Source of the DNA: Candidatus Saccharimonadales bacterium
GTDB taxonomy: Bacteria > Patescibacteriota > Saccharimonadia > Saccharimonadales > UBA4665
Reading direction: 5' to 3'
Length of the DNA stretch: 64,000 bases
Assembly: GCA_035479475.1 (NCBI GenBank)
Contig: DATIIP010000033.1
Span: 2,449 to 66,448 of the forward strand
Below are positions 3,951-42,724 of the stretch, in pieces. The number at the start of each line of letters is the position of its first letter. The first letter of the stretch is position 1. The translations under genes were made by a program, and so were the position numbers. The notes beneath the pieces were generated by a model that was given only the letters and a program-made list of their open reading frames with translations, did no database searches and was not told the origin of the DNA.

Positions 3951-5707
3951 TAGTGTTCTCCTCTTAGATTATCGCGTAATAGTTTGTCGAGTTCGGCCGA
4001 GCGCTTGAGTAGCGCATAAGCTTCTTCGGGATTGGCGGTTTGTTGTAGTGCAGATAGTCGACTTTTCTCCGTATCTACATATTTTTTGATAATTTTGAAT
4101 TGTAATTCAGCGGCTGCGTAGCCAAGCTCTGTAAGATCGTTGTCTTGATAGAGCGTCTCGTAGACTAATGACAATATTTTAGCATAGTCTGCAAACTTTT
4201 GCAGCATCTCTTTATCGCCGCCGTCGTAGTCTGGGTGGGCTTGCAAAAAGCTGAATACTTTTTCGGCTTGGTCGTTCACAAACATGTCGGTGTTTAGCGA
4301 ATATAAATACTGCCTGAGCTTGGGCTGGAGCAATGCGATAGCCATCAGATGCTCCTCATTACGACCCCGTTCAAACAGATCACGATCCATGGTTTGAGCT
4401 TGCTGCTGCACGCTGCGGCGACGCACTGGCTGGGTCTCGTCCTCTACGCCAGATAGTTTTGTACTCAAGGCCGCTTTATTCACGCTCAGCAGTTCAGCCA
4501 GTTTGCCAATGTAGTGGTCTTGCTCCACGCTATCGGGCAGTTGGCGCACCACGCGCAGCACCACGTCGCTCAGTTCTTTTTTGCCCTGGGCAGTTCCTAG
4601 ATCTAGCTGCTGCACGTAGCGGTCAATCAGCCAATCCACCGCATATTGGGGTTTGGTAATGATATCTTGCCAAATTCTGACATCCTGCTTGATGAGCTCA
4701 TCGGGGTCTTTGCCGCTGGGGATGGTAATGACGCTCAGTTGCACACCCACCTTGGCCGCCAGCGGAATAGCCCGCTCGGTGGCAGCGATGCCGGCGCGGT
4801 CGGCGTCAAAGCTCAGGCGGATGTCGCCGGTGAGCCTGGACATGGCTTTGAGGTGCGGCTCGGTCAGCGCCGTCCCGGCGGTAGCCACCACCTGGCGTAC
4901 ACCGGCTTGGTGACTCTGAATCACATCCAGCTGGCCTTCCGTGAGCACCACAAACTTGCTTTTGCGAATGGCGTCTTTGGCCAAATGCAGACCAAACACA
5001 TGGCGGCTTTTATCGTAGAGCGGCGTGGCTGGTGTGTTGACGTATTTGGGTGCATCCGGGTTGTCTTCCAGCAGCCGTGCCGTAAAGCCCACCACCCGGC
5101 CGCTGGCATCGCACAGCGGCACCATCAGCCGTCCACGGAACATATCACCGCCCCGCTGGCCGCTTAGGCCTGCCAGCTTAATTTCCTGCGTCGTAAAACC
5201 CTTGTTCTGCAAAAACTGTACCAGTGCGCCACCGGTGTTCGGGCTGTAGCCCAGCCGCCATTCCAGCGCCGTAGCCTTGCTAAACGCCCGTTTTTTGAGC
5301 GCGTACTCCAGCGCCGTTTTGTTCTTGCTAAATTGCGTTTGATAAAAATGCGTGGCCAGCTCCAGCGCCTCATACAGGCGCTCTTTGCTTTTGCCGCTCG
5401 GTCCGCGTGCAGCTCCGGGCTGTTTGTACTGGTCCAGATCAATCCCGGCCCGCCGCGCTAGCAGCTCTAACGCAGCGCGAAAATCCAGGCCTTCCACTTC
5501 CATTACAAAGCTGAACATGTCACCACCGCGGCCCGAAGAAAAATCGTGCCAAATCTGCTTATCCGGGCTCACCACAAAGCTCGGCGTCCGCTCCGGGTTG
5601 AACGGGCTCAGCCCCTTCCAGCTGCGCCCCGCCCGTTTGAGCTGCACGTACTCGCCGATCACATCTTCGATGCTCAGGCGGTTTTTGATCTCTTCTTTGG
5701 GGTCCAT
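3950..5707 (-). CDS. dnaG: DNA primase DnaG (zinc-binding domain lacks the Cys/His ligands)
   Basis: '[31 protein letters not shown]' aligns to the CHC2 zinc-finger region. TOPRIM '[10 protein letters not shown]' and '[12 protein letters not shown]' are present. Lies directly upstream of rpoD. Confidence 0.93.
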
Positions 5708-5770
5708 CTCTGTTACCTATTGTACGGCCTTCATCTCTACCCCCCAAATCTGCTACTATTAACCATAAGC

Positions 5771-6592
5771 ATGCAGCCCAACCAACCGCAACCAATTCCG
5801 CCCCTCGGGCCCAATTCACAACCTCCCGTTCCAGGGCAGGAATACACCACCGACCCCCTGGCCGTTTTGGCCGAGGAACACGGGCCGCTCTTGCCCGGTC
5901 CCGGCCAGCGTCATTTTCGGCATGATGTAAAGCAGCACGAGAACGGCCAATACGAGGTTGTCCCCCCTATCAGCAATACCGGCAGCGCCAGTGGCCACAA
6001 CCCCTATGAGTTCATCATCAACCCAGACACCACTAAACGCCGTTCCGGGCCACTCTTGGGCAAGTTGTCGTTTACCAAACAAATCGGATTGTTAGTGGGC
6101 GGCGTGGCAGTTCTGCTGATTGTGGCGGCCGTCGTCATTTCGGCGCTGGGGCCCAAGAGCAGCTTGCCAGGGCTGATCAGCCTGGCTCAGCGCCAGCAGG
6201 AGATTATTCGCATTGCCACCATTAGCGCCGACAAAACCAGCAGCTCCACCACCAAGAACTTTGTGATCAATACCGAGCTGGCCATGCTCAGCAGCCAAAC
6301 GCAGATCCTTACCTATCTAGGCGATCACGGGACCAAATTGGGCACCAAAGTGTTGGCGCTAGACCAAGACCCCAAAACCGACCTGCTACTCACCAACGCC
6401 GCTGCTGCCAATAACTACGACTCGGCAGTCACCCAAGCCCTCACCTCGCAGCTCAACACCTACCTTTCGCTCCTGCAAACCACTTTTAAACAAGCCGCTA
6501 GCCCCACTACCAAAAAGCTCCTGCAGAACGATTTTAGCGCTGCGCACGATTTGCTCGACCAGGCCAAGAGCTTGTCGCCTGCCAGCAGCTAG
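5771..6592 (+). CDS. Hypothetical membrane-anchored protein (Pro/Gln-rich N-terminus, one TM, helical C-domain)
   Basis: First ATG that does not overlap dnaG. TM 'IGLLVGGVAVLLIVAAVVISAL'. No recognisable family. Confidence 0.6.
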   Translation: MQPNQPQPIPPLGPNSQPPVPGQEYTTDPLAVLAEEHGPLLPGPGQRHFRHDVKQHENGQYEVVPPISNTGSASGHNPYEFIINPDTTKRRSGPLLGKLSFTKQIGLLVGGVAVLLIVAAVVISALGPKSSLPGLISLAQRQQEIIRIATISADKTSSSTTKNFVINTELAMLSSQTQILTYLGDHGTKLGTKVLALDQDPKTDLLLTNAAAANNYDSAVTQALTSQLNTYLSLLQTTFKQAASPTTKKLLQNDFSAAHDLLDQAKSLSPASS

Positions 6593-7354: not shown

Positions 7355-7837
7355 CTAGCGTGTCGTAAAGACTATAATGACATTGACTATGGAGGCTACA
7401 ACTGTAAATGCGGAAAACATTCTGTAAAATACATGGTTCGTGTCTTCTCGATTGTCCTTGTAATAGGTTAATGCTATCGTTGATACACCAAAAACCACAG
7501 CCGGGAGCGAGAACCAGTAGACAAAGATGGAGAGCGTGGCAAATACCACCCCAAAAAGTGCAAAGTCGTTGAGACGTGTGCGTGCAGGCTCCTTTAATTC
7601 ATAGCGCTTATTCACTTTTCTTATCAAAAGCAAGAGACCAATCGAACAGCCAATTAGCAGAATTGCAATGCCGCCCAATAGAGCATCACTCAAAGGTATA
7701 AGCCCAGAGGAGTGTGTCCTATCTGCGTAGATTCCGTAATCGGTAATTCTTTTCAGGGCATACGTGAGTAGACTTAGGCCTATAATGCTCGCTGCCAATG
7801 CTAACCATGCAATTTTCTTAGCTTTTAGTCCTTCCAC
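7355..7837 (-). CDS. Small four-TM membrane protein; candidate immunity protein for the upstream RHS C-terminal module
   Basis: GTG start with AAGGAGG 6 nt upstream, 39 nt after the RHS stop. Four hydrophobic helices. Markedly AT-rich compared with the neighbourhood. Confidence 0.6.
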   Translation of the reverse strand: MEGLKAKKIAWLALAASIIGLSLLTYALKRITDYGIYADRTHSSGLIPLSDALLGGIAILLIGCSIGLLLLIRKVNKRYELKEPARTRLNDFALFGVVFATLSIFVYWFSLPAVVFGVSTIALTYYKDNREDTNHVFYRMFSAFTVVASIVNVIIVFTTR

Positions 7838-7876: not shown

Positions 7877-10800
7877 TCACGGGTTACACTGCGCTGCAAC
7901 GGTTGACCAGTAGCCTACGTCCGGTCGGCTGCTATCCAGGTTCCAGCTCTCTTTGTTCGGTGCACGAAGTCTAACAAATTCCCAGTGACAGAAAAACTGA
8001 TCCTGCAGGTTTTTACGGTTGGCGGTTGGCGCTAGCGACTTAACTTGATTCCACGCTTCCAAACCATTTCTGGCATCTGTAACTCTACCCAATTTAGTCG
8101 GATATACCCTCAGTGTATCACCTCTTTTTATGACCTTATCAATATATCTGGGTGGCCGTGGTGTTGTATGCTTGCCAGTAAAGAAATGGACGTTCTTAAA
8201 GAGGTTCTTCCAGCTTATACTGTTTTGCCCACTCAAATCATTATCATTCACTGGATCCTGGGGATATACATAGTCATTGGTATTGCCGCCTTCTACTGGG
8301 TCTATCTGGGCGAATAATCCAAGATGAGAGCTGTACAAGCGACTACCCATTTGGATATAGCCGTGGTCTACGGTATTGCTAAAGGTAAACATTTCGCTGG
8401 AGCCCTTGTAGCCGAAGAAGTCACCGTCGGCATTGGAGGGGTTGGGTGTGGTTATGATGTTGCCGAATGGATCGTACTCATATGTCCAGGCACCGGCACT
8501 GCCGTCCCCATTTGCAACGGCAAAGATATCTCCGTTCATATCAGGCAGCGAGTAAACGTTACTAAAGCTGCTCGGGTTACTAATCTGACTGCCCTGTATG
8601 GTTAAAATGACATTTCCTGGCAATTGAACATATCGTGCGGTTAAGCTAGAGCCCGAGAAATAGGAAGCTATTGGTGTACTAGTAGAGTCCGCATACACAC
8701 GATAGGCAGACGCGTTGCTGCTGTAAGTCTGACGATTTATGGCATCAAACGTCTGCTTAGTACTGAATTCGCTCATGTAGACCGCGCGATCTGACGAATC
8801 GTATTCGATACCAGTTTGCGAGCTGCTGCCTTTGGAAAGGTTCCCGTGCGCATCATAGGTCTCGGTGGTGTAGTCGCTGTCGTTGGACTTGATGAGCCGA
8901 TCTGCATAGTCGTAGCAGTATGTGGTACTCGTGATGCCGTTGATGGACTGTGAAGTGCGGTCGCCGTCTTTGCCAGCATTGGTGTTGTATGTTCCTGTGC
9001 AGCCTGTCGGGGTGCCATAGTTGTATCCAAAGGTCGTCGCACCAAGCCTAGCCGAGGTCAGCCTACTGGCCTTGTCGTATGTATAGGTTTTAGCCATAGC
9101 ATTTTCTGTGCCTGATACGACTTGCCCGGACTGGCTGAGCGTCACCGCATCGGCAATAGTTGTGCCAGGAGCGCTTGTGCCTCTAGTATAGGTAACACCA
9201 CTCTGGCTACCTAAGGTGTCATACGACACAGTCAGCTTCAGCACACCAGCGGCATTGTATGCAACCGCACTAAGTCTACCGTAGGCGTCATAGGTGGGCG
9301 TGGCAATGGTAATTCCTGCCAGTTTTTGCGTCGCCAGTCGGTTGTAATTATCGTATGTATAGCTTTCTGTACCGACGCCCGATTTAGTAATTAGTCTGCC
9401 AAGATTATCATAGACATAGGTAGTGCCATACAAATTATGGGTTGTACCGATGATCTGTTCATCGGTGTAAGCCGTTAGTCGCCCTAGCAGGTCATTGGTG
9501 CTTGTTAGCGTACCGCTGCCGTCAGCTACTGTGTTCACTAGCGGGTTACCGAGGTAAGCATAGTTGGAGGTTATAGTTCGTGCAGAGCGTGTAACGTGAG
9601 TGGTATTTGCAAGCGCCGGATATGTTTGCTGCGTGACTCTGCCCCGGCTATCGTAGGTCGTACATTTCCAGGGGTCGGTATTGATGCGAGCTGCAACTAT
9701 GCGGCCGGCGTTATCATAGACATTCTCTGTTGTAACTGGAGTCTGCGAACCTGCACCATCGGGGTCAGGGCCGGTTGTAATCTTGAGCATGCCGGCCTGC
9801 GAGAACGTCTGGCTAACATTGCACGGGTTTTGTCGGGTTTCGGTGGCGCCGTAATAGCTGTAGTTTGTAGTTACCCCGCCTGGAAGTGCCTTAGAGAGTT
9901 GTCTGAGGAAGCTACCGGTCGCCCCTTGCGTTTCATAGGTGTAGCTCGTGGTTAGTGCCAGGCCAGACGGATCAACCGTATCGGATTGCACTAAACCTAG
10001 TTCTGGGTGAGTACCATAATTGTGCGTCGTTACTTGGTTGCCCACGCTGGCGCTGGAATCGTACGTGGTGTCGGTGGTATCCAGACCGTACAGCGGCGTC
10101 AGCAAACTGCCCAGCGAACTGGTTTCGCTGCCGCCGGGAGGCGTCATGTAGAGCTCCAGGCGGGCGTTGGTGTCGCCCAGCTTGTTGTAGTAATCTAGGC
10201 GCACACGATGCCAGTTTTGGGTGTCGTCGCCTGCGTTGTAGGTAGCAGCAAACGTACCGGTGGGGTGCGAACGCTGCGCGCCGTCGGTCCAATCGTTGAC
10301 GATCAGGTTGTCATCGATCCACAGCCGTACGCCATCGTTGGAGAACACACGGAAGTTGTACGTACCAGTGGTGGTTAAGTGAATATCGCCGGTCAGGCTG
10401 GCGCCCCAGCCGTCGCCGCTGTCGGGCGTGAACGGCGGCGTGCCGTTCCAGGTTTGCAGAACATCGCCGTTACTCGGACCGATGCCGGTAGCATGACTCT
10501 TAGGCGCGCCGAACAACACAGCGGTGCTGCCGCCGGTGCCGTTGGTGGCGCTGACTTCGTTGTAATAGGCGGTGGCCAGGCCGTTAATGCCTTGATCGTA
10601 CCCAGTCTGGTCGTGCGGTACCTGCGGCGTGTAGTCGGTGGGCGTAGTGAGCGGTTTGCGGTCGGTGCCAAACCAAGTGGATGGAGCCGGGCCGTAGGTG
10701 TCGGTCAGGCGGCTGGCGTAATCGTAGAGGTACGTGGTTTCCAAGCCAGTCGGCTCGGTGCTTGAAAGTGTTAGGTCTTTTTTGGCATCCCACACCGTGG

Positions 10801-13800
10801 TTGTGGTGAGGTTGGCTACGTCGGTATCAGTCAGGGTGCGGAAGGTGCCATCGTACGTTACTTTGCGGGTAAAGCCATTCGGCTCGGTGGCGTTGGTAAC
10901 GTGCATGAGCGCGGTATTGTTGGGCAAATACGTGTAGGTGTGTGCCAACGGCGTAGCGCCAGCGGTGGCAGCTGGCAACGTTACACCAACTGCTCGGCCC
11001 AGAGCGTCGTAGGATATAGCCGTATAGGTAGTGGCATCATCCGCGCGAACACCGGCGCTAACTGCATCGTAGGCCAGACTATCTCGTACCTGCACAATGC
11101 GCCCGGCAGTGTCATAGCCGTAATCGGTAGTTTCGGAACCCGGCGCCACGATGCGCGACAAACGGGGGTTACCATTGCCATCGGCCTTGTAAAAGAAGCT
11201 AGTGGTGTTGCCGTCGGAAGTAGTGGCGGCACAAACGTACTGCGTAGACGTAGCGGCCAAGAAGCCAGATGGCGCAGTCGGACAACTATTGGGCGAATCG
11301 CTGCCGTAGTACACCTTAAGCCAGCGCGAACCGCTGACCGGGTCGCTGATTTGCGTTAAATGCACCGGTGAGCCATTGGACGTGCCGTAGGTGTATTGCA
11401 ACGCAGCCGGGTGTAAGTCGTCGGTGGCGGATGTAACCGAGCGGATGGTGCCATCGGTGTTAAAGACGTACGTTTGGCCATCGCTATCTTGCAGTGTTAC
11501 CGTGCCATCACCATTCCGGATCATTTGTCCGACCTCACCCGCTGGCGGTGTAAAACCGCCGTTCACATAGGTGTATTCATGCGATTGACCCTGAGAATCG
11601 TACAGCGTGACTGCCGATGGGTTGATGACTGCGTAATCATAGTTGGCGGTGCCATCGGCGTCCAAGCTCAAGTTCCAGCCATCGGGCAACACTTGGGTGC
11701 CGGGCGACAATGAGGTTGAGCTGACCGGCACACCTTGGGCGTTGCCCTGATTCCCCTGCTCCACGTACAGCCCCATTTGGGCATTACCCGTGTTCTCGTA
11801 ATATTCAACGGTGATGGGCACGGTTTGACCGGCGCTCAGCGTTGTGCCGCTGGCGGCATAGACCAGCGGGCTCGGACCATGATCGGACCAACTGTCCACA
11901 ATCTTGGTGCCGTTTAGGTAAATGCGCACGCCATCGTCACTGCCCGCCCCAAAGGTGTAAGTATCGGCAATCGGTGCGGTAAAGTAGCCGGTCCAGCGCA
12001 CCATAAAATGGTCGGCTGGTGCGCCCGGTGCTGGGGCATTCGCGCCCCAGTTCAGGTTTAAGCTGGGGTCGGTGCGTACCAAAAAGACGCGCGTTGGGTC
12101 GGCCGCGTCGGTGGGAAAATTGTGTGAGCCGTCGTCGGTGTAATAGTGGCCAGCCAGCCCGTGCGCCGTCGCGATGGGCTGAATGCCAGTTTGCAGCCAG
12201 GTGGTTGGGATGGCCTGCGATGCAATGGTGCCGTCGGTGGTTTTTACCAGCATCTGTGCCGAAGCGTTGCCGGTGATCTCGGCGAATTCATAGGTGATTT
12301 GTTCAACCTGGCCGGCCGTAAGCATAACCCCGGTGCCAAACTGAGCCGTGGGGTTGACGCTCCAGCCGTCCACATAGGCCGTGCCAGAACCGTTCAAAAA
12401 GATGCGCGAGCGATCGTCACTGGTAGTACCAAACTGGTAGGTGCCGTTTTGCGGTGCTACAAAGTAACCGGTGTAGCGCGCCAAAAAGTGATCATTATTC
12501 ACTACTCCGGAATACGGGCTGCCGCTACCCCAATCAAAGCTGACGTTGGGATCGGTGCGCGTGATGAGCGGAGCACTCGATGGAAACACCAATGTCCCGC
12601 CCGGATCATTCCAATATTGGCCAATCAGTCCGGCACTCGAGCGCTGCGGCGAGTTATAATCAAGCCCTAGCCCAAGCGTGCCACCCAGCGCAGCCACCGA
12701 ATTAGTCTGATTGCTAGTGGTTACATTACCGGTAGCCATATCAACATCTACCGGACCCATGCTGTCCAGGCTTTGTGTACTGTCGCGGCCATTGCGCAGA
12801 TCCACCCGGAACGAATAGACCGGCCCATACACCTGCGGCGCCCCGCTGTAGCTATCCCACACCACTGGCTGCCAGTAGTAGGTGGTACCGTCGTGCAAGA
12901 CATTGGCCGGCAGCGTCCATTGAGCCTGGTTAAGCAAACCAGAATCAGCAATCACTCCGGTGACGCCTTGTTGAATGTGGAACGGATCGTTTTGCGGCAG
13001 GTTTTTGCCCATGCCGACGATATAGCGATATTGCAGTGGCCCCGGACCATCCGGGTCGCTCGGCGTGGTAGAACCCAGCGTGGGCTGCAACGACGCTGTG
13101 CTGCCACCGTCGACCGGTGCCGGAATGCAGGGAGAGGCTGTGCAGATGGTGCTCTGTGCGGGCAGTGTCTCGTAGGTAAAGGTGACGCTAGTTTGCGTGT
13201 TATCGAAGAATTTGTAAGTATCGGCCGAGGTCTCTTCGCCTCTCACAATCATCCAGGGGCTGGTATCGCTAGCGGCTACTGCCGCTCGGTACATCGAAGC
13301 CATTTCGATGTCGCCACTCGTCGCAATAACGCTACTTGCTTCACCATAGGTACCTGCCGGATCAACGCAGTTGAACCCATTGGTACAGCTGGCGTGGTCC
13401 ACCGTAATAGTCTCGTTGCCGGTGGTGCCGTAATCGTTGCCGTCAGGCGTGGGCATTTGCAGGTGCAGCTTGGCACTCACCAGATATTGCCCAGGTGAAG
13501 CTGGCACAGCCGCCTGGTACACAAACCGCCAATAATCATCTGCGATGGCATCATGGCCCACACTGTTGCCGCAGCCCTGCCCAGGCCCGCACGATAGCCC
13601 AAAGTCACTCTCGAAATTGTTATAATTGCTGCCCTCCGGCACTGTAAACACTGTGGGGTCGATTACCAACGGGAAGGCTTTTTTGGGCTGTGCAGACAGC
13701 CAATCCTGGTCAACCACCACGCTTAGCACATTGCCCGAGGCGCTTTGCGTAACCGGTGAATCTTTAGCCACAATGCTGCCAGCAGCAGTACGCACAGTGG

Positions 13801-14674
13801 GCGCGGCCAGCACAAAGCCGCTAAATGCACCGTCTAACGCATACGCGCCATCTTGCCCGCTGACCGGTGTTAAATGAGCACCGGAAACCGCAAAACCATA
13901 CTGCGGCACAGCGTTCTTGTTGTGCAGCACGATGCTTTCCTTTACCTGCGAACCGCTGACGTTGTAGCGCAGGTCTACGCCGTTCCACAAATTGGCGTAG
14001 GTAACGGTTTGGGCCGAGCCCCTGCCCGATACAGTTGGATTCACAGCATTGGCGTCTACTGGCAGCATGCGAAAGGTTTGGCCGTCTTTGGCCAGTGCCA
14101 CGCCATAGGTTTTGGCATTGCCAAAGCTAGCTTGCCAGGCATTGGCCCGGGTACGCCACACACCGTCCGAGCCTTTTACGAGCGATGAATCAACATTTTG
14201 CCACTTGCCATTAGCGTCTTGATAGCTCGTGGCCTGGGCGGTATACACCACCGATGTTGTGCCATCGGCGTTGCGGTATTCCCGGCTATTGGCCGTCCGG
14301 CCAGTACTGAGTAATTGTACGTGTGTAAAGTTTTCACTCTTGCCCTTGGCGGCCGCGGCTTGCTGAGCAGCCAGCTGTGCGCTGAGTTTGGAAGAAAACG
14401 GCGCGCCAGCAGCCAGGCCCGAGCCACTAGCGGCCGGGGCGTACTGCAAGGCAGCATCGCTGGTAAGCGCTTGCGGCGTATGGCCACGTTTCGCCAAATA
14501 GTGCTCGATGTAGCTATAGAGCCCCGACGGGCCCGCGCTAGCAAACAGCAGCACCAGCAAAGAAAAAACACTGAACGTTCGGTAGCTCAGTGTTTTTACC
14601 CTTTTGGCTGGCCCCGTGCCGGTCCGAATACTATAGAGTTTTCTTCTGTTACCCCACGTTTTTATAAGCCGCAT
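7877..14674 (-). CDS. RHS/YD-repeat protein with N-terminal signal anchor, three PA14 domains and a short C-terminal variable module (polymorphic-toxin architecture)
   Basis: YD repeats ('YTYDNYNRL', 'YDAYGRL', 'YTYDKASRL', 'YEYDPFGN'). RHS core end '[41 protein letters not shown]'. ATG at 14674 has AGGAGG 4 nt upstream; the track start at 14692 is less likely. Confidence 0.9.
7880..8224 (-). other. C-terminal variable module of the RHS protein (115 aa after the core-terminal motif)
   Basis: Sequence after '...[11 protein letters not shown]'. It ends '[44 protein letters not shown]', which I recall as resembling DUF2599-type proteins (memory only). Confidence 0.6.
10140..10585 (-). other. 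PA14 domain 3, inserted within the YD-repeat region (approximate bounds)
   Basis: '[11 protein letters not shown]...[26 protein letters not shown]...RLDYYN'. Confidence 0.7.
11760..12161 (-). other. PA14 domain 2 of the RHS protein (approximate bounds)
   Basis: '[16 protein letters not shown]...[35 protein letters not shown]'; tandem to domain 1. Confidence 0.8.
12230..12635 (-). other. PA14 domain 1 of the RHS protein (approximate bounds)
   Basis: '[12 protein letters not shown]...[35 protein letters not shown]'. Confidence 0.8.
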
Positions 14675-14854: not shown

Positions 14855-15730
14855 TTAACAGCCGTTGACGGTAATCGAGATATTACTGTTGTTCGTATTC
14901 GTAACACTGCCGCTAGTAGTAGATCCGCCGCCCGTGTTGCCCGATGATGTTGCGCCACCACTCTGCCCAGTTTGGCTTGACGAATTGCTGACATTGACGT
15001 TAGTGTTGCTGGTGCAATTACCGGTGCCACCTCCACCACCGGTGGGTGTACTGGCAACCGACAAATTGTTCGGCCCAAGTGTTACCGTATTGCTGGTACC
15101 GAGTAGCGCAGAGGCAGAGCTCCAGCCCACGCCCATTACCAGCACGGCAAACGCGCCGGTCGCCATGGCAAGCTTAGGCCGAACGTTTGGCTTGCGGTGC
15201 GGCCGCGCCAACTCCCACAATCGATATGGCTTAATCTTGCGCAAGTACGCTGCCAAACGCCGCGTTTCTTCAGTCATGATCAGCAGCGCCGGCAAGTAGA
15301 CCAGTAGGGTAATCCCCGGCCAGGTTTTAGCCCACATCAGCCATGTTCCAACATACGGCACATGCCAGACCATCTTGCCCCGCACCAAGCCGCCTACCAC
15401 CGGCAAATCCGGGCTAGGGTTGGCATCACCTTTGGTGATATAAGCCGGTATGCCATGTAGTTTATACACTTTAATGATGCGGTGCGTCAGCGTACTGTGC
15501 ATCGTGAGCGGATTGGTGTGAGTGATGACGTCCCCAACTCGTAGCGATGAGTAAGGGACGCGGTGCACTAGCACCAACGATCCAGGCGACATAGTGGGAC
15601 GCATGCTGCCGGTCGGCACACTCAAAGCCTGCCAGCCCAGTGTCTGCCTGTTGAATAGCAGCACAGTGGCAGCGCACAGCAAGAATCCCGCTATGCCCAA
15701 AGTTATGAGTGTGCGTCGCAGCAGCTTCAT
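14855..15730 (-). CDS. SipW-like (S26B-type) signal peptidase I with a C-terminal extension carrying a second TM and a Gly/Ser/Thr/Asn-rich tail
   Basis: 'VPTGSMRPTMSPGSLVLV' (catalytic Ser motif) and 'ITKGDANPSPD' (TKGDxN motif of the SipW/archaeal type). The tail copies the neighbour's signal region. Confidence 0.8.
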   Translation of the reverse strand: MKLLRRTLITLGIAGFLLCAATVLLFNRQTLGWQALSVPTGSMRPTMSPGSLVLVHRVPYSSLRVGDVITHTNPLTMHSTLTHRIIKVYKLHGIPAYITKGDANPSPDLPVVGGLVRGKMVWHVPYVGTWLMWAKTWPGITLLVYLPALLIMTEETRRLAAYLRKIKPYRLWELARPHRKPNVRPKLAMATGAFAVLVMGVGWSSASALLGTSNTVTLGPNNLSVASTPTGGGGGTGNCTSNTNVNVSNSSSQTGQSGGATSSGNTGGGSTTSGSVTNTNNSNISITVNGC

Positions 15731-15745
15731 GCGTTATGTCCTAAA

Positions 15746-16300
15746 CTAACTCGCGGACTGTGTCCCTACGAATTGAATGTCGAAAGGATTCACTGTAGTA
15801 CCGGGACCGGTAAAGCTCGATGACAACTCTGCCGTAGCATTGCAGTCTACCGTAGCCCCTGCGGCCAATGTGCCCAACGGTGTTCCACCAGTATACTGAT
15901 CGAGCGTTCCGCTAGAGTTACTGCTGCCACAAGTCATGTCTAACGTGACATCTGCCGGTGGAATCGGCGAGCCCACTAAGGCTGCCTGTGGAATAGCTGT
16001 AGTAAGATCAAGTGACACGTCACCAGTGTTCTTTAGACAGAAGAGATATTGAGTCGAGGGCACGCCTGGCGTAAGCTTAACGGTCATGCCAGGTTTTGAT
16101 GTGCTTGATAAATCTGTACAGTTTCCACCGTTGCCCAGGCCGATTTGCAATGCTGCCGTGGCTGACGTAAGTGTGTTTTGAGTCAATGCAACCGTGTTCG
16201 ACGTCAGCGCCGCAAACGTAATTCCGCCCACTAACGCTCCCACAGCCCCCATAGTTCCAACAGCCCGAACCATTGGATTAATTTTTCTAATACTAAACAT
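15746..16300 (-). CDS. Secreted TasA/camelysin-like protein with a SipW-type signal peptide
   Basis: ATG at 16300 with GGAGG upstream. 'AVGALVGGITFAALTSNTVAL' resembles the GGT(F/Y)A-type SipW-dependent signal. Adjacent to the sipW-like gene. Confidence 0.65.
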   Translation of the reverse strand: MFSIRKINPMVRAVGTMGAVGALVGGITFAALTSNTVALTQNTLTSATAALQIGLGNGGNCTDLSSTSKPGMTVKLTPGVPSTQYLFCLKNTGDVSLDLTTAIPQAALVGSPIPPADVTLDMTCGSSNSSGTLDQYTGGTPLGTLAAGATVDCNATAELSSSFTGPGTTVNPFDIQFVGTQSAS

Positions 16301-16425
16301 ACGCACCCCTCCTTGCTCAATTAGTAAGGCCCATTTTAGGCGCGGCTGAGCATGAGCGGTATACAAATTTTCACAAACGAGTGCTAGCCAAACGGGGCTA
16401 TTTTGCACTGTTTTACAGAGAGGGC

Positions 16426-17121
16426 TTAGCCCGCAATAACAATCCCGCGCCCGCTATAAAACCGAGCAAAATCTTTCCCACCCACAGCCGCATAGGCTTG
16501 TGATTCCACCGACCCGCCCGACGGATTATGCATATAGAACACCGCTGTCCCACGATCGTACCCAACCACCAGTACTAGATGCCCGCCTTTGGCCTGGGGC
16601 ACAGACTCAGGGTCACGAATCGCCGGGCTCACCGAAGCAATCACATAATTACCCCGCGCCAGTTCATACACAATCTGCACCGGTGGCAAAACCGGCACCG
16701 CTCGTGCCATCAGCCCAAATTCCTCACGCACAAATGGTACGAATGGTGCATAGTTGAGTCCAATCGAGCTTTCGAGCGGCATGTCGTAACACCCGTAGCG
16801 CACCGCCATCTTGCAAAGCGTTACCAGGGGCACAATCTGGCCCCGATGCGCCAGCACCATCCGCAGGCAGGCCATACCGCAAGCGTTCCAGCTCCACTCG
16901 GCATATTCGGCCCGTGTCGCCGCACCCGAGTGCTTCCACGCCGGGTCATCCTCGGCCCGCACCGTGCCATCCAGAATCTGCCGCACCAACCCGCGCGATT
17001 CCCACTGCGCAAAATAGGGCACGCCCTTGTGCACAGACCGCTTGGGCAAGCCCAGCCCAACCGCGCCATACCACACGGCTTTTACAACCGTTAGCGTTCC
17101 AAGCAAATACCGCTTAACCAT
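16426..17121 (-). CDS. Peptidase C39-like (papain-fold) domain protein
   Basis: 'YFAQWES...NACGMACLRMVL' (catalytic Cys context) and 'GGHLVLVVGYD' (His). Start overlaps the ddl stop (TGATG). Confidence 0.7.
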   Translation of the reverse strand: MVKRYLLGTLTVVKAVWYGAVGLGLPKRSVHKGVPYFAQWESRGLVRQILDGTVRAEDDPAWKHSGAATRAEYAEWSWNACGMACLRMVLAHRGQIVPLVTLCKMAVRYGCYDMPLESSIGLNYAPFVPFVREEFGLMARAVPVLPPVQIVYELARGNYVIASVSPAIRDPESVPQAKGGHLVLVVGYDRGTAVFYMHNPSGGSVESQAYAAVGGKDFARFYSGRGIVIAG

Positions 17122-37803: not shown

Positions 37804-38073
37804 CTACTTCATGTCGTCAGTGAGCTTATCAAGCTCTTCCTGGCACATTTGAGCGTAGTTTGGGTAGACGCGGTTGAGCGTATCTACTCCTTCTTGTTCG
37901 CCCCGAGCCGAAGCGGCTTCAACCTCTTTCATTTGCTCGGGGGTCAACTCTTGTGAGAGCCGCAGGCCGATCCTCCCTTGCAGTGTCTTGAACATTTCCT
38001 GTAGTATCTGCTGCTGCTCAGCCTCGGGCAGCTGATCGATACCCAGTTCTTTGATGTATCTGCTAAAATCCAT
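37804..38073 (-). CDS. Small acidic helical hypothetical protein
   Basis: 89-aa ORF, terminator downstream; family not recognised with confidence. Confidence 0.6.
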   Translation of the reverse strand: MDFSRYIKELGIDQLPEAEQQQILQEMFKTLQGRIGLRLSQELTPEQMKEVEAASARGEQEGVDTLNRVYPNYAQMCQEELDKLTDDMK

Positions 38074-38134
38074 TGTCTTCTTCTCTTTCTGTTTTATTTA
38101 CGTTTTAATTATCTACCTAGAGTATACCCTAAGC

Positions 38135-41100
38135 CTAGCGGCGGGGGCGCAGAACACCCGCAACCACTTCACCCCTAGTGAGGCCATTCGCTTCAGCAAA
38201 CGGAGTGAGCTCATCGATCATCCCTTCGCGCACACTAATGGCACTAGCGGTGTTCATGTAATTCCAAGCTGCCTGGTTGGTAGCATCGGTCTTCAGAGCA
38301 TTGAACTGTTCGTCAAAGATCCTCAGGATGTTATCTGGAGTCCGCTCTGCAGCCGGTAGTGCGTCGATCTGGCTTTGAACCTCAGTTCTAAAGCTGCCTA
38401 CCATCCGGGTGCGGGCAGTCGTAGCCTCGGCACGCTCAGCATCCATACGAGCAGTCCGTTCAGCGGGTGTTTCTGCTACTGGTGCAGGGGCTGCTGGGGC
38501 GTCACCAGGAGCGGGAGGCGTACCGGGAGCTGGAGGGGTGGTGCCAGGGACGGGAATCGGAGCACCACCACGAACGCCAGGAACTGTAACCGAAAGCGGG
38601 TTATCGCGGCGAATGGCAGCAGCGGCACCGGCACCGTGCCTAAAGTCTGCACTCACAGCAGCATCAGCGGCAACAGTAGCCATACCGGCTAAACCGCCCA
38701 GATACGGATAGTTATCGTAGAAGAAGCTACTCTCGCTTGGGTAAGCCGTGTGGGTTACCGATTCGTGGCCAGCTGGCGTAGTGCCGTGGATGAACTGGTC
38801 AATTACATTGTTTGGCACCACAGCAACGTGGGCGTTGTTACCGGCAGCCAGCTTCATGTACAGCGTCTGTTGGGCATTGTCCATTACACCGTGGAATGTC
38901 TCGTCGATGTGAACTACATTTGAACCATCAATATGATAGACGGCCATAGTGTGACCATCTGGAACTTCCAGGCCGCTGTGACCGTTAACCTTGTCGCCAA
39001 GATACCAGGTTGAACTGGTTGGGTGAATTTGGCCATTGTGACCAACGGCTAAGCCGTGAGTGACATCAACATGAGCGCCTGCGGCGTGGGCCTTAGAGGC
39101 ACCAGCAAGAATAGTCTGTTGTGCGTGAACCTCAGTACCTTGTGGAGCATTGTTCCAACCAGTACCGTCGGCATTAGTGTGCTGCATGTGCTGAATGAGC
39201 GTGTGGTGCGGGTTGGTACCAGCCACCTGATGAGACAGATCGCCCCAGTGAGCAGCATTCGAAGTATCGACATTGCCAACACCAGGAATATTGTGCGTAC
39301 CACTCGTATCAGGAGTAACGCTAGCACCTGCATGTTCAACGTGTCCGCTAGCTAGTGAATGAAGACCACCGGCTGCAGCACCACCAAAGAAGCCACCAAG
39401 CGCACCGAAGCCAATACCACGTGCAGTACGCCTAGCGCGTTCCTCGGTGTTAGCCTGGAAAACATCACCACTATGCGTGTCCATAATTCGGGCCACTTCA
39501 GTAGTGAAGCCATCGTAATCATCACCATACCGGCCGCGAGCTTCCTCGATACGAGCCAGCTGATCTTGAATACGAGTACGGAGCACGTCAGACCCCTGAG
39601 CGTTGGCTGAGCCACGGGAAAGGTTGGCAAACCACCGACCCATTACGCCACCACCAACGGCACCAGTAGCCGCACCCTTGCCAGCACCAATAAGTGCAGC
39701 CCACAATACAGCCGTTGAGCCACCAGAGGCAGCGAAACTTACGCCTACTGCAGCGGTCATGGCACCATATAGGAGGACCTTCCCTGCGGGACGTGACAGG
39801 AAGCGGAGGAAGCGGTTGCGGCCGACTCTTTCAGCAATGCGTTGACCACGTGTCTTCTCTTCGGCCACTTCGGTCTGCTGACGCTCGCCTACCATAGTCC
39901 AAGCAGTTTGCTTGTTGAGAATCCTTTGACCACCACTACCTGGCTCAGCGGCCAGTGCAGCATCAAATGCTCGGCGGGCAAGTAGGTAATCGCGTTCTAG
40001 CTCGGCACGATTGCCTGCGCCGGCACCGCTTTCCAAGGCGTGCTTGGCACGAGCCAGGTCCACGATAGCCCGTTGGGTATCTGCAGAGAAGGTATCGAAT
40101 TCAGGCGTGCGCAGTGGAGTCGGCTCTGGTTCTGGATCACCAGTTTCAGCAGGTGCAGCGGGAGCATCGGCTGGGCGCGTTACACCCGGCACATCGGCTG
40201 GAGCGAGGGCGCTAGGATCATTACCAACCAAGCGACGAACAGCTGCAGCAGTAAGCGCAGTGCGAAGGCCGTTCATGTGACGGTCACGGACAGCGGCGAA
40301 ACGGGCCTGAGCATCAGCAAGCTGGGCTTCTAGAGCAGTGACGGCTAGGGCGTCGCCTCGACGGCGTGCTGCCTCGAGGTCGCTCTCTAGAGTAGCAATC
40401 TGCGCTTCGTGGCGAGCGTTGATTGAAGGCTCGTCACCTGCCTCGCCTTGTCCACGAGTGCGGGCCAATTCTGCACGGGCAGCCTGCTGCATAGCAGTCA
40501 GCTCTGTGCCATTGATGTTGGCGTTTGCAATAAACCGCTCCAGACGTGCTCGATCAGCATCAGACAAGTCTGCAGGATCAGCGCCGAACAGCTCTACGTT
40601 CCTTAAGGCTAGTTGCATCTTGCGGTTGACGCCGTTATTGACATCGCGCAGAGCTTCGATGGTACCACGAGTAAAGTCGATGGAGCCAGTGGCCAGCGCC
40701 CATTGGTCTGAAGTTAGACCAGGAATAACACCGGCATCTGGTACGGCTTCGTCACGTGTACGAGTACGGCGATCACCAGGTGCTACGCCAGTAACTCCTT
40801 CGGCTCGGGCGATAGCGTCTTCACGGGCTTCAATACGGCGATCTAGCAGGGTTGGGGGGCGCCCCTCTTGGGCACGCATAAAGTTGTTATAAAACCAGCG
40901 CTCTTCGGGATCTAGAGCTGCGATAGCTCGGGCAACGTCTACACCAGTGTGAGGGCCACCCCCAGCAACTCCTACGCGGGCATGTACCGGGCCGGTTGCA
41001 CGATAGTGACCGATGGCACTTTCAATCAAACCCATCCGCTCGGTTATCTGATCGGGAGTCATTGCTAGTACTCCCTGCAAGCGGCGCATGCTTTGCTCAC

Positions 41101-41308
41101 CTTCTGTACCAGGGCGAGCAGCGTCAGACAAAACATCGGCCGCTATAGGAGCAACCATGTTTTCGGCAATTGCGGTTTGTACGTTGCGATTAAGCAGGAA
41201 TTCGTTGCGGTCTCGGTTCACTGGAACACCAGCTACGCGAGCAGCCCTGTCCGCCTCGTCTTGAGCCGCGCGTGCCTGGTCCATTGCTTGTACGATTCGT
41301 TCACTCAT
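38135..41308 (-). CDS. 1057-aa orphan membrane protein: Ala/Arg/Glu-rich N-half, Gly-zipper TM segments, His-rich domain, Pro-rich linker, helical C-terminus
   Basis: Long ORF with no strong competing frame. TM candidates 'VLLYGAMTAAVGVSFAA', 'AVLWAALIGAGKGAATGAVGGGVMG', 'GIGFGALGGFFGGAAAGGL'. Confidence 0.75.
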   Translation of the reverse strand: MSERIVQAMDQARAAQDEADRAARVAGVPVNRDRNEFLLNRNVQTAIAENMVAPIAADVLSDAARPGTEGEQSMRRLQGVLAMTPDQITERMGLIESAIGHYRATGPVHARVGVAGGGPHTGVDVARAIAALDPEERWFYNNFMRAQEGRPPTLLDRRIEAREDAIARAEGVTGVAPGDRRTRTRDEAVPDAGVIPGLTSDQWALATGSIDFTRGTIEALRDVNNGVNRKMQLALRNVELFGADPADLSDADRARLERFIANANINGTELTAMQQAARAELARTRGQGEAGDEPSINARHEAQIATLESDLEAARRRGDALAVTALEAQLADAQARFAAVRDRHMNGLRTALTAAAVRRLVGNDPSALAPADVPGVTRPADAPAAPAETGDPEPEPTPLRTPEFDTFSADTQRAIVDLARAKHALESGAGAGNRAELERDYLLARRAFDAALAAEPGSGGQRILNKQTAWTMVGERQQTEVAEEKTRGQRIAERVGRNRFLRFLSRPAGKVLLYGAMTAAVGVSFAASGGSTAVLWAALIGAGKGAATGAVGGGVMGRWFANLSRGSANAQGSDVLRTRIQDQLARIEEARGRYGDDYDGFTTEVARIMDTHSGDVFQANTEERARRTARGIGFGALGGFFGGAAAGGLHSLASGHVEHAGASVTPDTSGTHNIPGVGNVDTSNAAHWGDLSHQVAGTNPHHTLIQHMQHTNADGTGWNNAPQGTEVHAQQTILAGASKAHAAGAHVDVTHGLAVGHNGQIHPTSSTWYLGDKVNGHSGLEVPDGHTMAVYHIDGSNVVHIDETFHGVMDNAQQTLYMKLAAGNNAHVAVVPNNVIDQFIHGTTPAGHESVTHTAYPSESSFFYDNYPYLGGLAGMATVAADAAVSADFRHGAGAAAAIRRDNPLSVTVPGVRGGAPIPVPGTTPPAPGTPPAPGDAPAAPAPVAETPAERTARMDAERAEATTARTRMVGSFRTEVQSQIDALPAAERTPDNILRIFDEQFNALKTDATNQAAWNYMNTASAISVREGMIDELTPFAEANGLTRGEVVAGVLRPRR

Positions 41309-41448
41309 GATTGATTACTACCTATATCTTTCCTTGGATAAGTTTTAATTTTTTTGTTTGATCGTGCATATAGTAGCAAAAAAGCAGTGTTTTGTCAATT
41401 ACTTTTATGCTTTATGGCGGTTATGTCAAATAAATGTACCATAGGGTT

Positions 41449-41457
41449 TGATACAAT
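41449..41457 (+). promoter_or_regulatory. Extended -10 box (TGaTACAAT) 8 nt upstream of the tsaD ATG
   Basis: Match to TGnTATAAT; no SD sequence before the ATG at 41466. Confidence 0.45.
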
Positions 41458-41465
41458 AGGTGTAA

Positions 41466-42527
41466 ATGATTGTTTTGGGCATTGAAAGTAGTTGTGATGA
41501 GACGGCGGCGGCCGTGGTGGAAGACGGTTATAAGCTGCACGGCAACGTAGTAGCGAGCAGTATGGATTTGCACGCGACCTATGGCGGCGTGGTGCCGGAG
41601 ATCGCGGCGCGCAGCCATATTGAGTCTATCACCCCTGTTATATCGAGCACTCTGACGCAGGCACAGATGACGTGGGACGATATTGACGCCATTGCGGTCA
41701 CCTATGGCGCAGGCCTGGGCGGCTCCTTGCTTATCGGCGTTTTGGCGGCCCGGACGCTGGCGATTACCAAGGGCAAGCCGCTGTACGCCATCAACCATGT
41801 GGAGGGGCATGTGTATGCCAACTTTTTGACGAGCACTTCCCTGCCCGGCTTTGTTTTGCCGGCTGCGCAGCCGGAGTTCCCGCTGCTGGCGTTGATTGTA
41901 TCTGGTGGACACTCGCAGTTGGTGCTGTTTCGTGACCATTTTGATTACACCCTGCTCGGGCAGACTCAGGATGATGCGATTGGCGAGGCCTTTGACAAGG
42001 TGGCTAAAATCATCGGGCTTCCCTACCCTGGCGGGCCGAGTGTCAGCAAGAAAGCGCTTGAGGGTAATGCGCAGGCGTTTACCTTTCCCAAGGCGCGTAT
42101 GACCGATAAGTACGACTTTAGCTTTAGCGGGCTCAAAACGGCTGTTTTGCGCACGGCACAAGAGATTATTGGAGAGGACTTCACTTTTTCGAGCAAAGGC
42201 CTGCCAGAGCGGCTCAGTGAGACTCAGAAAGCCGATATTGCGGCCAGCTTTCAGCGGATAGCGGTTGAAACGGTGGTGGATAAGGCTCTGACGGCGTTCG
42301 AGGAGTTTGGGCCGAAGAGTGTGGTGATTGCCGGCGGTGTGGCGGCCAACAGCGAGCTGCGGCGGCAGATGGCGGAACGCTTGCCTGCTCCGATTGCCTA
42401 CACCGATATCAAGCTCTGTACCGATAATGGCGCGATGATTGCCACGCTTGGCTGTTTTACAGCGATGCATGGCCGGCTGGCGGCTGATCCGTACGGTTTG
42501 GATATTGCACCGAACCTGTCGATGTAG
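41466..42527 (+). CDS. tsaD: tRNA N6-adenosine threonylcarbamoyltransferase
   Basis: 'ILGIESSCDETAAAVV', 'VNHVEGH', 'ALIVSGGHSQL', 'VIAGGVAAN'. Confidence 0.95.
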   Translation: MIVLGIESSCDETAAAVVEDGYKLHGNVVASSMDLHATYGGVVPEIAARSHIESITPVISSTLTQAQMTWDDIDAIAVTYGAGLGGSLLIGVLAARTLAITKGKPLYAINHVEGHVYANFLTSTSLPGFVLPAAQPEFPLLALIVSGGHSQLVLFRDHFDYTLLGQTQDDAIGEAFDKVAKIIGLPYPGGPSVSKKALEGNAQAFTFPKARMTDKYDFSFSGLKTAVLRTAQEIIGEDFTFSSKGLPERLSETQKADIAASFQRIAVETVVDKALTAFEEFGPKSVVIAGGVAANSELRRQMAERLPAPIAYTDIKLCTDNGAMIATLGCFTAMHGRLAADPYGLDIAPNLSM

Positions 42528-42724
42528 GCATGGTTCACGTGAAAGTTGTCGAGCTATAGCGCCCGCCTAACAGAGGTGGTATACTGATTGGTAATTATGC
42601 GCGTTTTAGTGGTTATTGGTTCGGTACGCAGCGCCGGAGGTGGAACAGTGAAAGATGGTGTCCCTAGGGGACTATAATTTCTCTTTACCTGCACTTTTAC
42701 TACCGTTAACTAAGGATACTGATC

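Follow-up and report, generated by a model that had tools for sequence, protein, structure and literature searches.

Among the closest described systems are the Rhs/YD-repeat polymorphic toxins of monoderm bacteria, of the Bacillus subtilis WapA type, which are reportedly the subject of the 2013 work of Koskiniemi et al. Together with Rhs effectors of type VI secretion systems (T6SS), such as RhsA (7Q97), 7PQ5, RhsP (8H8A), Tse15 (8UY4) and 8QJC, these toxins share several features with a gene located in a stretch of 64,000 nucleotides (nt; hereafter the window) from a Candidatus Saccharimonadales bacterium (GCA_035479475.1, contig DATIIP010000033.1, positions 2,449-66,448): a beta-cocoon of YD repeats, a DPxG...DxxG core, a variable C-terminal toxin, an immunity gene directly downstream and orphan cassettes. 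The gene (positions 7877..14674 of the window) encodes a protein of 2265 amino acids (aa) with an RHS/YD shell decorated with PA14 domains, and it probably constitutes, together with the small membrane-protein gene that follows it (7355..7837), a two-gene polymorphic toxin-immunity module of the RHS/YD-shell type in Saccharimonadales (Patescibacteria), while the mechanistic details proposed below are held with lower confidence than the module itself. Both genes and all their parts lie on the minus strand. Unlike the Rhs toxins mentioned above, the protein carries three PA14 domains in its shell and a DUF2599 cargo, its candidate immunity protein is an integral membrane protein and its host is a Patescibacterium; in addition, no PAAR, VgrG, T6SS parts or wall-binding repeats were found with Pfam, and since PAAR/VgrG elements are missing it is not a T6SS Rhs effector.

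A close analogue has already been noticed in the soil Saccharibacterium Candidatus Teamsevenus rhizospherense, for which a putative secreted toxin of 2487 aa was reported in one sentence (Starr et al. 2018, PMC6031116). Compared by description only, this protein resembles ours in its giant size, its polymorphic-toxin domains, its RHS and YD repeats, the presence of PA14 and a neighbouring immunity gene, but differs in that one PA14 and a galactose-binding domain were reported for it, the types of tail and immunity protein not being stated. In the literature searched, no other paper linked Saccharibacteria with Rhs or polymorphic toxins in this sense. Bacterial teneurin-like proteins, which consist of an FN-plug, an NHL beta-propeller and a YD shell (Raoelijaona et al. 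2026, PMC13018210; PDB 9IFO, 9PT5), are also similar, given their surface-exposed YD shell with a toxic C-terminus, their immunity genes, their export by Sec and signal peptidase I (in Gram-positives) and a non-shell domain placed between plug and shell. The study describing them covers six phyla, Patescibacteria not among them, and PA14 is not mentioned in it (PMC13018210). Because no NHL domain was detected in our protein and a PA14 dyad takes its place, it is not a teneurin-like protein as defined in that study. The system is thus of a known kind, its overall logic being that of a familiar RHS polymorphic toxin, and no concept is overturned by it; the new elements are a shell anatomy with three PA14 insertions, which two phyla have in common, and a toxin-immunity cassette in which DUF2599, an uncharacterised domain, is paired with a membrane protein containing a YAD loop.

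To our knowledge, Patescibacteria, also called the Candidate Phyla Radiation (CPR), have tiny genomes, and almost nothing is known on how they fight or exploit other cells. In the present case a single putative weapon gene occupies more than 10% of the 64-kb window. The minus strand is open from 14692 to 7877, and an ATG at 14674 gives the 2265 aa that a sequence-only reading of this DNA had proposed for this open reading frame (ORF); the translation matches residue for residue an NCBI protein (P0001) from a Candidatus Saccharimonadales metagenome-assembled genome (MAG), automatically named "DUF2599 domain-containing protein". The gene was delimited by its ORF, its translation and its Pfam and NCBIfam domains, and the reduced genome supposed by the same reading is in line with the Saccharimonadales source.

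The RHS nature of the protein is supported by several lines of evidence. With hidden Markov models (HMMs), by which the sequence-only reading had proposed that the PA14 and RHS families be checked, both PA14 and RHS repeats were found, the YD/RHS repeats scoring 48.5 bits overall with PF05593, in four separate segments, and 24.2 bits with TIGR01643 (YD_repeat_2x; cut-off 15.8). The shell starts with a plug hairpin (aa 640-689, ...LGLDYNS; 12608..12757), which is DUF6531-like according to a weak PF20148 match of 14.9 bits (aa 644-689) and whose residues 640-675, with LDYNS at 671-675, are collinear with the canonical plug of the relatives P0020 and P0022. The first part of the shell (aa 996-1365; 10580..11689) contains RHS_repeat matches and is rich in beta-strands in a structural model, with predicted local distance difference test (pLDDT) values of about 75-90 and Foldseek matches to Rhs cocoons, and the second part (aa 1531-2066; 8477..10084) contains six RHS_repeat stretches, a TIGR01643 match and profile matches to 7Q97, 8H8A, 8UY4, 8QJC and 9PT5. 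It is followed by the Rhs-associated core (aa 2067-2150; 8225..8476), whose motif starts with RLYSS, has aa 2149 as its last residue and is kept by every relative. When aligned with the consensus of the family, D2125 and D2146 of this core correspond to a putative aspartyl autoprotease pair, and cleavage would occur near G2149/Q2150.

The AlphaFold2 model of aa 985-2150, built from 19 sequences (pLDDT 82.8, predicted TM-score (pTM) 0.77), matched the Rhs cocoons 8QJD, 8QJA, 8UY4, 7Q97 and 7PQ5 with Foldseek E-values of 1e-33 to 1e-37 and a probability of 1.0, although with TM-scores of only 0.19-0.47, modest values that long beta-spirals carrying one more domain would be expected to give. The cocoons matched include the Rhs proteins of Salmonella bongori and Advenella, Tse15, RhsA, Tre23-Rhs, RhsP and Tse5, and matches were also obtained to the bacterial teneurin-like protein 9IFO, to metazoan teneurins and to TcB-TcC, the same set being recovered by profile search. 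Membership of the Rhs family is therefore settled by the core motif, the profile matches to solved Rhs proteins and the Foldseek matches taken together. No further Rhs cores were found in the 64-kb window.

All three PA14 domains announced from the sequence alone were found with Pfam (168.7 bits in total), and when the segments were scanned separately with PF07691 (cut-off 24), PA14-1, PA14-2 and PA14-3 scored 57.8, 83.4 and 38.2 bits, respectively. PA14-1 (aa ~680-815; 12230..12637) and PA14-2 (aa ~838-972; 11759..12163) form a tandem dyad that aligns with the crystallised dyad of the clostridial anti-sigma factor RsgI3 (6QE7), its best sequence match in the PDB, at E 4e-26 by sequence and 2e-48 by family profile, PA14-2 being aligned to 6QDI as well. 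The tandem arrangement had been correctly recognised, whereas the identity of about 60% between its two halves had been overestimated: it is 43% over 138 aligned positions, and each half is about 25% identical to PA14-3. The position of the dyad also required revision, since it had been placed ahead of the shell. The plug hairpin comes before PA14-1, and the canonical element that follows the hairpin, LPDGWN, is reached only at aa 996-1001, after the dyad; in P0020, an RHS relative without N-terminal PA14 domains, only nine residues separate the plug from the GW strand, compared with about 320 aa in our protein, which aligns to P0020 in two blocks flanking the PA14 pair. This two-block alignment indicates that PA14-1 and PA14-2 are an insertion of about 320 residues between the plug and the first strand of the shell.

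The third domain, PA14-3 (aa ~1366-1530; 10085..10579), detected by PF07691 on two overlapping segments (38.2 and 19.2 bits), is embedded among the YD repeats as had been described, with RHS_repeat matches on both sides of it, and every relative, the actinobacterial ones included, has it at this position. In the AlphaFold2 model it is a folded domain, with pLDDT mostly of 80-91 except in one lower block, it matches the PA14 dyads 6QDI and 6QE7 at E 1e-7 with Foldseek, and it would project outward from the shell.

The RsgI study describes three requirements for PA14 modules to bind sugars in a calcium-dependent manner, namely an Asp-cis-Asp pair (DcisD) in strand 5, a Tyr that is conserved and, in loop 2, a polar residue; pectin or xylan is bound by the RsgI dyads by means of the DcisD motif together with CBL2 (PMC6852018). 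Our dyad resembles those of RsgI3 and RsgI4 (6QE7, 6QDI; PMC6852018) in its two consecutive PA14 domains, the Asp-Asp of strand 5 and the Tyr...N/E-x-T-G-N loop 2: the signature is present both in PA14-1 (D753-D754 and loop 2) and in PA14-2 (D913-D914 and EYYENTGNA at 957-965), and is altered in PA14-3, where alignment against the residues of PMC6852018 places N1446-D1447 instead of Asp-Asp. In the RsgI case, a signalling protein binding plant polysaccharides has the dyad as its extracellular sensor, whereas here the dyad is an insertion in a toxin shell. Judging from this signature, which serves yeast PA14 lectins as well for calcium-dependent binding of sugars, the PA14 domains most likely dock the cocoon onto glycans of the envelope of a neighbouring cell, and the conserved lectin decoration of the shell thus suggests how an RHS toxin of a monoderm or epibiont could find its target.

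After the core motif 116 aa remain (2150-2265; 7880..8227), very close to the tail of 115 aa that had been noted. Seven orthologues of 2228-2290 aa, two of them named as Saccharimonadales, are 54-68% identical over 94-97% of the query, and all seven keep the shell, each with an unrelated tail, which answers the question, raised by the sequence-only reading, of whether orthologues retain the shell and swap the tail. The core motif was located in six of them, in which the tails have 85-133 aa, and in the seventh (P0004) a variant core motif was missed by the pattern, the tail again being unrelated. Divergence begins after DPxxGG..N.Y.Y..DP[VI]N..D..G, as it does in the actinobacterial relatives, of which one, from Kribbella, has 47% identity in its best local alignment by BLASTP, covering 54% of the query. 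Two orthologues lie in neighbourhoods unrelated to the window, each with a different small soluble ORF downstream. Besides, the guanine-plus-cytosine (GC) content of 0.57-0.63 in the shell falls to 0.44-0.47 over the tail and the next ORF and then recovers, and this low value of the cassette is that of the loci with related cassettes. Orthologue comparison, the GC break and the orphan cassettes described below show that recombination at the core motif can exchange the cargo. The polymorphic toxin-delivery interpretation is hence sustained, given a tail that is not invariant (an invariant one was what the sequence-only reading had named as refuting it), the drop in GC, a recurring tail-matched membrane gene and the orphan cassettes. 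Behind one orthologue (P0002; L001 12718-15114) there are five small ORFs on the same strand, including two DUF4279, one DUF4288 and one DUF2283, which may be an array of immunity genes.

The presence of a tail had been recognised from the sequence alone, but not its identity: aa 2184-2265 (7880-8125) are a DUF2599 domain, with PF10783 scores of 87.2-92.9 bits (cut-off 25). When 1.84 billion representatives were scanned exhaustively with the tail by HMMER, 418 clusters were obtained at E <= 1e-3, and in the best 150 of these 418 the matched domain ends at the C-terminus or within about 20 residues of it, except in P0158, a spurious match to Sushi repeats, and in P0046. The Rhs core motif lies just upstream of DUF2599 in at least eight of the best 150 clusters and two more start inside an Rhs core, while most of the remaining ones are small proteins bearing a signal peptide or a lipobox. 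Our cargo shares with other PF10783 proteins the Q..CH...WNL..RP....CNP signature at the extreme C-terminus, and differs from the free-standing ones in being carried by an Rhs shell, here and in at least eight other clusters. The tail of P0015 appears DUF2599-like by eye, but it was not used as evidence because its locus lacks a downstream ORF on the same strand.

Genome relatives were found with a tight alignment of eight DUF2599 sequences. The nearest in reference genomes belong to Leifsonia, Streptomyces, Nocardia, Mycobacterium, Agromyces, Actinomyces and Arthrobacter; they are secreted or are lipoproteins, and none is linked to RHS. A word-indexed homologue search with the tail gave a single match, a genome search with the single tail gave none, and a PDB sequence search with the tail gave only a chance match of 14 bits. 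The alignment of the family contains invariant or nearly invariant P, R, W, Q, C, H, K, W, N, L, R, P, C and N, and the tail has every one of the invariant residues Q, C, H, W, L, C and N; in the numbering of the protein the conserved residues include Q2226, C2229, H2230, K2241, W2244, L2246, R2250, C2263 and N2264. A papain-like arrangement of Q, C and H was considered and dropped, since C2229 and H2230 are adjacent in the middle of a helix and the second invariant Cys suggests a disulfide. In the literature searched DUF2599 appears only in passing, as a family expanded in mycobacteria (PMC3388012) and as the C-terminal part of HvnA (PMC3510237), and no published function was found.

The gene behind the toxin gene (7355..7837), a low-GC ORF that begins 39 nt past the toxin stop codon, encodes 160 aa with about four transmembrane (TM) helices according to a TM scan and a loop, GIYADRTHSSG, after TM1, and it is the candidate cognate immunity gene. 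No Pfam family scored above threshold for this protein and a word-index search returned only the protein itself. Related ORFs were found at other RHS-DUF2599 loci: in L003 an ORF of 158 residues, located 22 nt downstream of an RHS-DUF2599 gene, is 31% identical to it (E 5e-14), shorter ORFs in L006, L030 and L032 have the same TM1, loop and TM2 layout with the motif G-x-(Y/N)-A-D-x-(T/H)-x-(S/T)-G, L007 has a variant of the loop motif, and L033 has a TM protein of 94 residues without the motif. Members of this small YAD-loop family are found behind five or six of the seven RHS-DUF2599 modules examined, other tails having other downstream ORFs, and an alignment of the partner family (A4) shows invariant G35, D39 and G45. 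By the positive-inside rule the loop is predicted to lie outside the cell, given a Lys-rich N-terminus and a strongly basic loop after TM2, and its co-occurrence with DUF2599 suggests that the 160-aa partner protects the producer and its kin.

In L030/L031 and in L033 the DUF2599 unit is an orphan cassette, made of the end of an Rhs core, the tail and a TM ORF, and lies downstream of a complete PA14-RHS gene (2395 or 2384 aa) with its own immunity gene, Imm44 in L033. A core end with a tail and a small ORF behind a full gene is the classical layout of rhs loci, and the occurrence of orphan cassettes behind PA14-RHS genes indicates that the DUF2599 cassette is one of those that this shell family can exchange. 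These arrays lie at L030 1-4700 and L033 1-3700, and in L033 a Y1 transposase-like ORF also follows the PA14-RHS gene.

Among the free-standing DUF2599 genes of Actinomycetota, nine of 22 are followed by an overlapping or adjacent small ORF with 2-4 TM helices. In Leifsonia (L008 2811-4114), as well as in L009, L017, L020, L022, L024, L026 and L027, the DUF2599 proteins are secreted, have about 320 aa and carry an N-terminal domain without assignment ahead of DUF2599, preceded immediately by an ADPW motif in L008 and by HPW in L009; the stop codon of these genes overlaps or abuts an ORF of 100-160 aa with 2-4 TM helices, and six of these TM ORFs share a W..A(D/N)...LP...W.AA.(A/T)S pattern. 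Such genes and their TM ORFs look like stand-alone toxin-immunity pairs. The two genes in the window, in turn, offer a defined toxin-immunity pair that can be put to the test, for a domain with a wide distribution in Actinomycetota, mycobacteria included.

As for export, aa 34-52 (14519..14575) are the sole TM-like segment of the 2265-aa protein in a hydropathy scan, are preceded by a basic N-region and have an equivalent in the orthologues P0002-P0008; their simplest interpretation is that of a putative signal or signal-anchor for Sec. Behind this helix, aa 130-270 (13865..14287) gave a weak match to DUF7948 when the segment was scanned alone (PF25778, 28.1 bits against a cut-off of 27). The N-terminal region of about 650 aa had been taken as unique, and this does not hold, since the N-terminal 640 aa align with every relative found, including those of Kribbella, Kitasatospora and Subtercola, and the DUF7948-matching part is common to all relatives in Saccharimonadales and Actinomycetota. 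No PAAR, prePAAR or VgrG-binding family was detected by Pfam in these 640 aa, and delivery by a T6SS or a type VII secretion system was rejected, given that Pfam scans gave no PAAR, VgrG, WXG or LXG signal.

These observations can be assembled into a model of the module. The protein would be exported through Sec by means of its N-terminal hydrophobic segment and then displayed on the surface or released. The YD repeats form a closed beta-cocoon, as the model and the fold search show, which by what is usual in the family would enclose the last 116 residues, and the core aspartates D2125 and D2146 would, according to the motif, free the cargo inside the shell. The three PA14 domains are spliced into the shell sequence, the dyad between the plug and the first YD strand and the single one in the middle of the shell, and may guide the cocoon to glycans of the target cell. 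DUF2599 would then act at the membrane or wall of the target, on the extracytoplasmic side, and the membrane protein encoded at 7355-7837 would shield the producer and its kin. An action from outside, at the membrane surface or the wall, seems most likely, given that a pair of Cys is invariant, that the free-standing relatives are secreted or are lipoproteins, that the conserved loop of the partner would face outward and that an injection apparatus is lacking, and such an effector would be spared the crossing of the target membrane.

The target is presumed to be rival epibionts or the actinobacterial host, and the same weapon family is found in Saccharimonadales and in Actinomycetota, the phylum of the known hosts of Saccharibacteria. 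One alternative keeps the module as it is and changes only its victim: the toxin would be aimed at the actinobacterial host, which it would kill or permeabilise for resources, and not at rival Saccharibacteria, the immunity protein serving only against self-intoxication during export. The presence in Actinomycetota of both the shell family and the DUF2599 relatives (Leifsonia, Streptomyces, Nocardia, Actinomyces) suggests a weapon evolved against actinobacterial envelopes, and Patescibacteria extract resources from host surfaces (PMC13622651). However, where tails are polymorphic and come with immunity genes to match and with orphan arrays, the usual cause is that close relatives compete, and the related cassettes lie on low-GC contigs (0.44-0.47) with the same PA14-RHS genes, one of these contigs, of 898 kb, being as large as a Saccharibacteria genome, so we regard an exclusive host target as a serious option that is nonetheless somewhat unlikely.

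Several observations weigh against a toxin-immunity module. The tail model, in spite of a pLDDT of 92.2, has no Foldseek match (best E 1.1 in PDB and 0.58 in BFVD), and with a fold that matches nothing solved no activity can be assigned to DUF2599. The domain forms the C-terminus of Pseudomonas aeruginosa HvnA, where it sits behind a halovibrin domain (PMC3510237), that is, behind a bona fide toxin-type domain; it occurs in three tandem copies in P0166 (652 aa); and the stand-alone lipoproteins expanded in Mycobacterium and Nocardia have no adjoining membrane partner gene. The membrane partner could also be an anchor or a receptor and not an antidote. The RHS core terminus, which had been read from the sequence and is supported by motif, profile search and fold (Foldseek E 1e-37), scored 31.1 bits with TIGR03696 (aa 2067-2150), marginally under the cut-off of 32.5. 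Moreover, we know of no delivery route across the target envelope for monoderm RHS toxins.

Some of these points, namely the HvnA architecture, the triplicate, the partnerless lipoproteins and the lack of a recognised catalytic fold, would fit a different role in which DUF2599 is accessory, serving for instance to bind the wall or membrane or to activate, and the membrane protein is an anchor, receptor or chaperone. Nevertheless, the 116-aa tail is the entire cargo past the Rhs core, it takes the exact slot of the unrelated tails of the orthologues, it moves as an orphan cassette of core, tail and TM ORF, and its invariant polar residues (Q, H, K, N, R) are typical of an active site, all of which makes an accessory role improbable. 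The architectures of P0166 and of P0075, which has a C-terminal DUF2599 together with a weak PGRS-repeat match (23.6 bits, cut-off 27), do not fit a simple one-toxin model.

Metazoan teneurins use the YD-shell fold for adhesion. That our protein is mainly an adhesin, its PA14 lectins and rigid YD shell attaching the epibiont to its actinobacterial host and its tail having no toxic role, would agree with the preserved calcium/sugar signature of PA14 domains, with the resemblance of the shell to teneurins and bacterial teneurin-like proteins, with the attached life of Saccharibacteria on Actinomycetota (PMC13622651) and with the presence of the protein family in Actinomycetota too, but it is very improbable in view of the hypervariable tails on a conserved shell, the intact Rhs core motif and the tail-specific downstream genes, Imm44 and orphan cassettes that are hallmarks of toxin-immunity turnover, and adhesion and toxicity can in any case coexist.

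Returning to the toxin-immunity module, a more specific proposal can be advanced tentatively, as a possibility that we do not favour over the less specific ones: DUF2599 might represent a new class of antibacterial effector that attacks the envelope from outside, is neutralised by a mini membrane protein with a YAD loop, and is delivered without an injection machine by a lectin-studded RHS cocoon docking on the glycan coat of actinobacterial hosts or rival epibionts.

The remaining genes of the window provide the context of the module. Its neighbours are housekeeping genes (rpoD, dnaG, ddl, a murein ligase gene, groEL, tRNA synthetase genes and tatC), and directly upstream of the toxin gene there are three ORFs on the same strand: one of 291 aa (14855-15730, minus strand) with a borderline match to signal peptidase S26 (22.8 bits, cut-off 22.9), one of 220 aa (15746-16408, minus strand) without any family, and one of 231 aa (16426-17121, minus strand) encoding a C39-like peptidase (42.8 bits). 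On the other side, an ORF of 348 aa (5546-6592, plus strand) with one hydrophobic segment and no Pfam match overlaps by about 160 nt the 5' end of dnaG, that is, the region encoding its N-terminus on the opposite strand, and its true start is therefore probably located further downstream.

Two other large ORFs were noted on the minus strand, one of 1057 aa (38135-41308) without a Pfam match and one of 868 aa (52016-54622), whose sole Pfam match is a C-terminal PIG-L domain (GlcNAc-PI de-N-acetylase type, aa 606-788), the first 600 residues being without assignment. Finally, cumulative GC skew reaches its minimum near 38-40 kb of the window and the main gene strand turns from minus to plus at about 41-42.7 kb, so that the region around 38000-42700 could be a replication origin or terminus.

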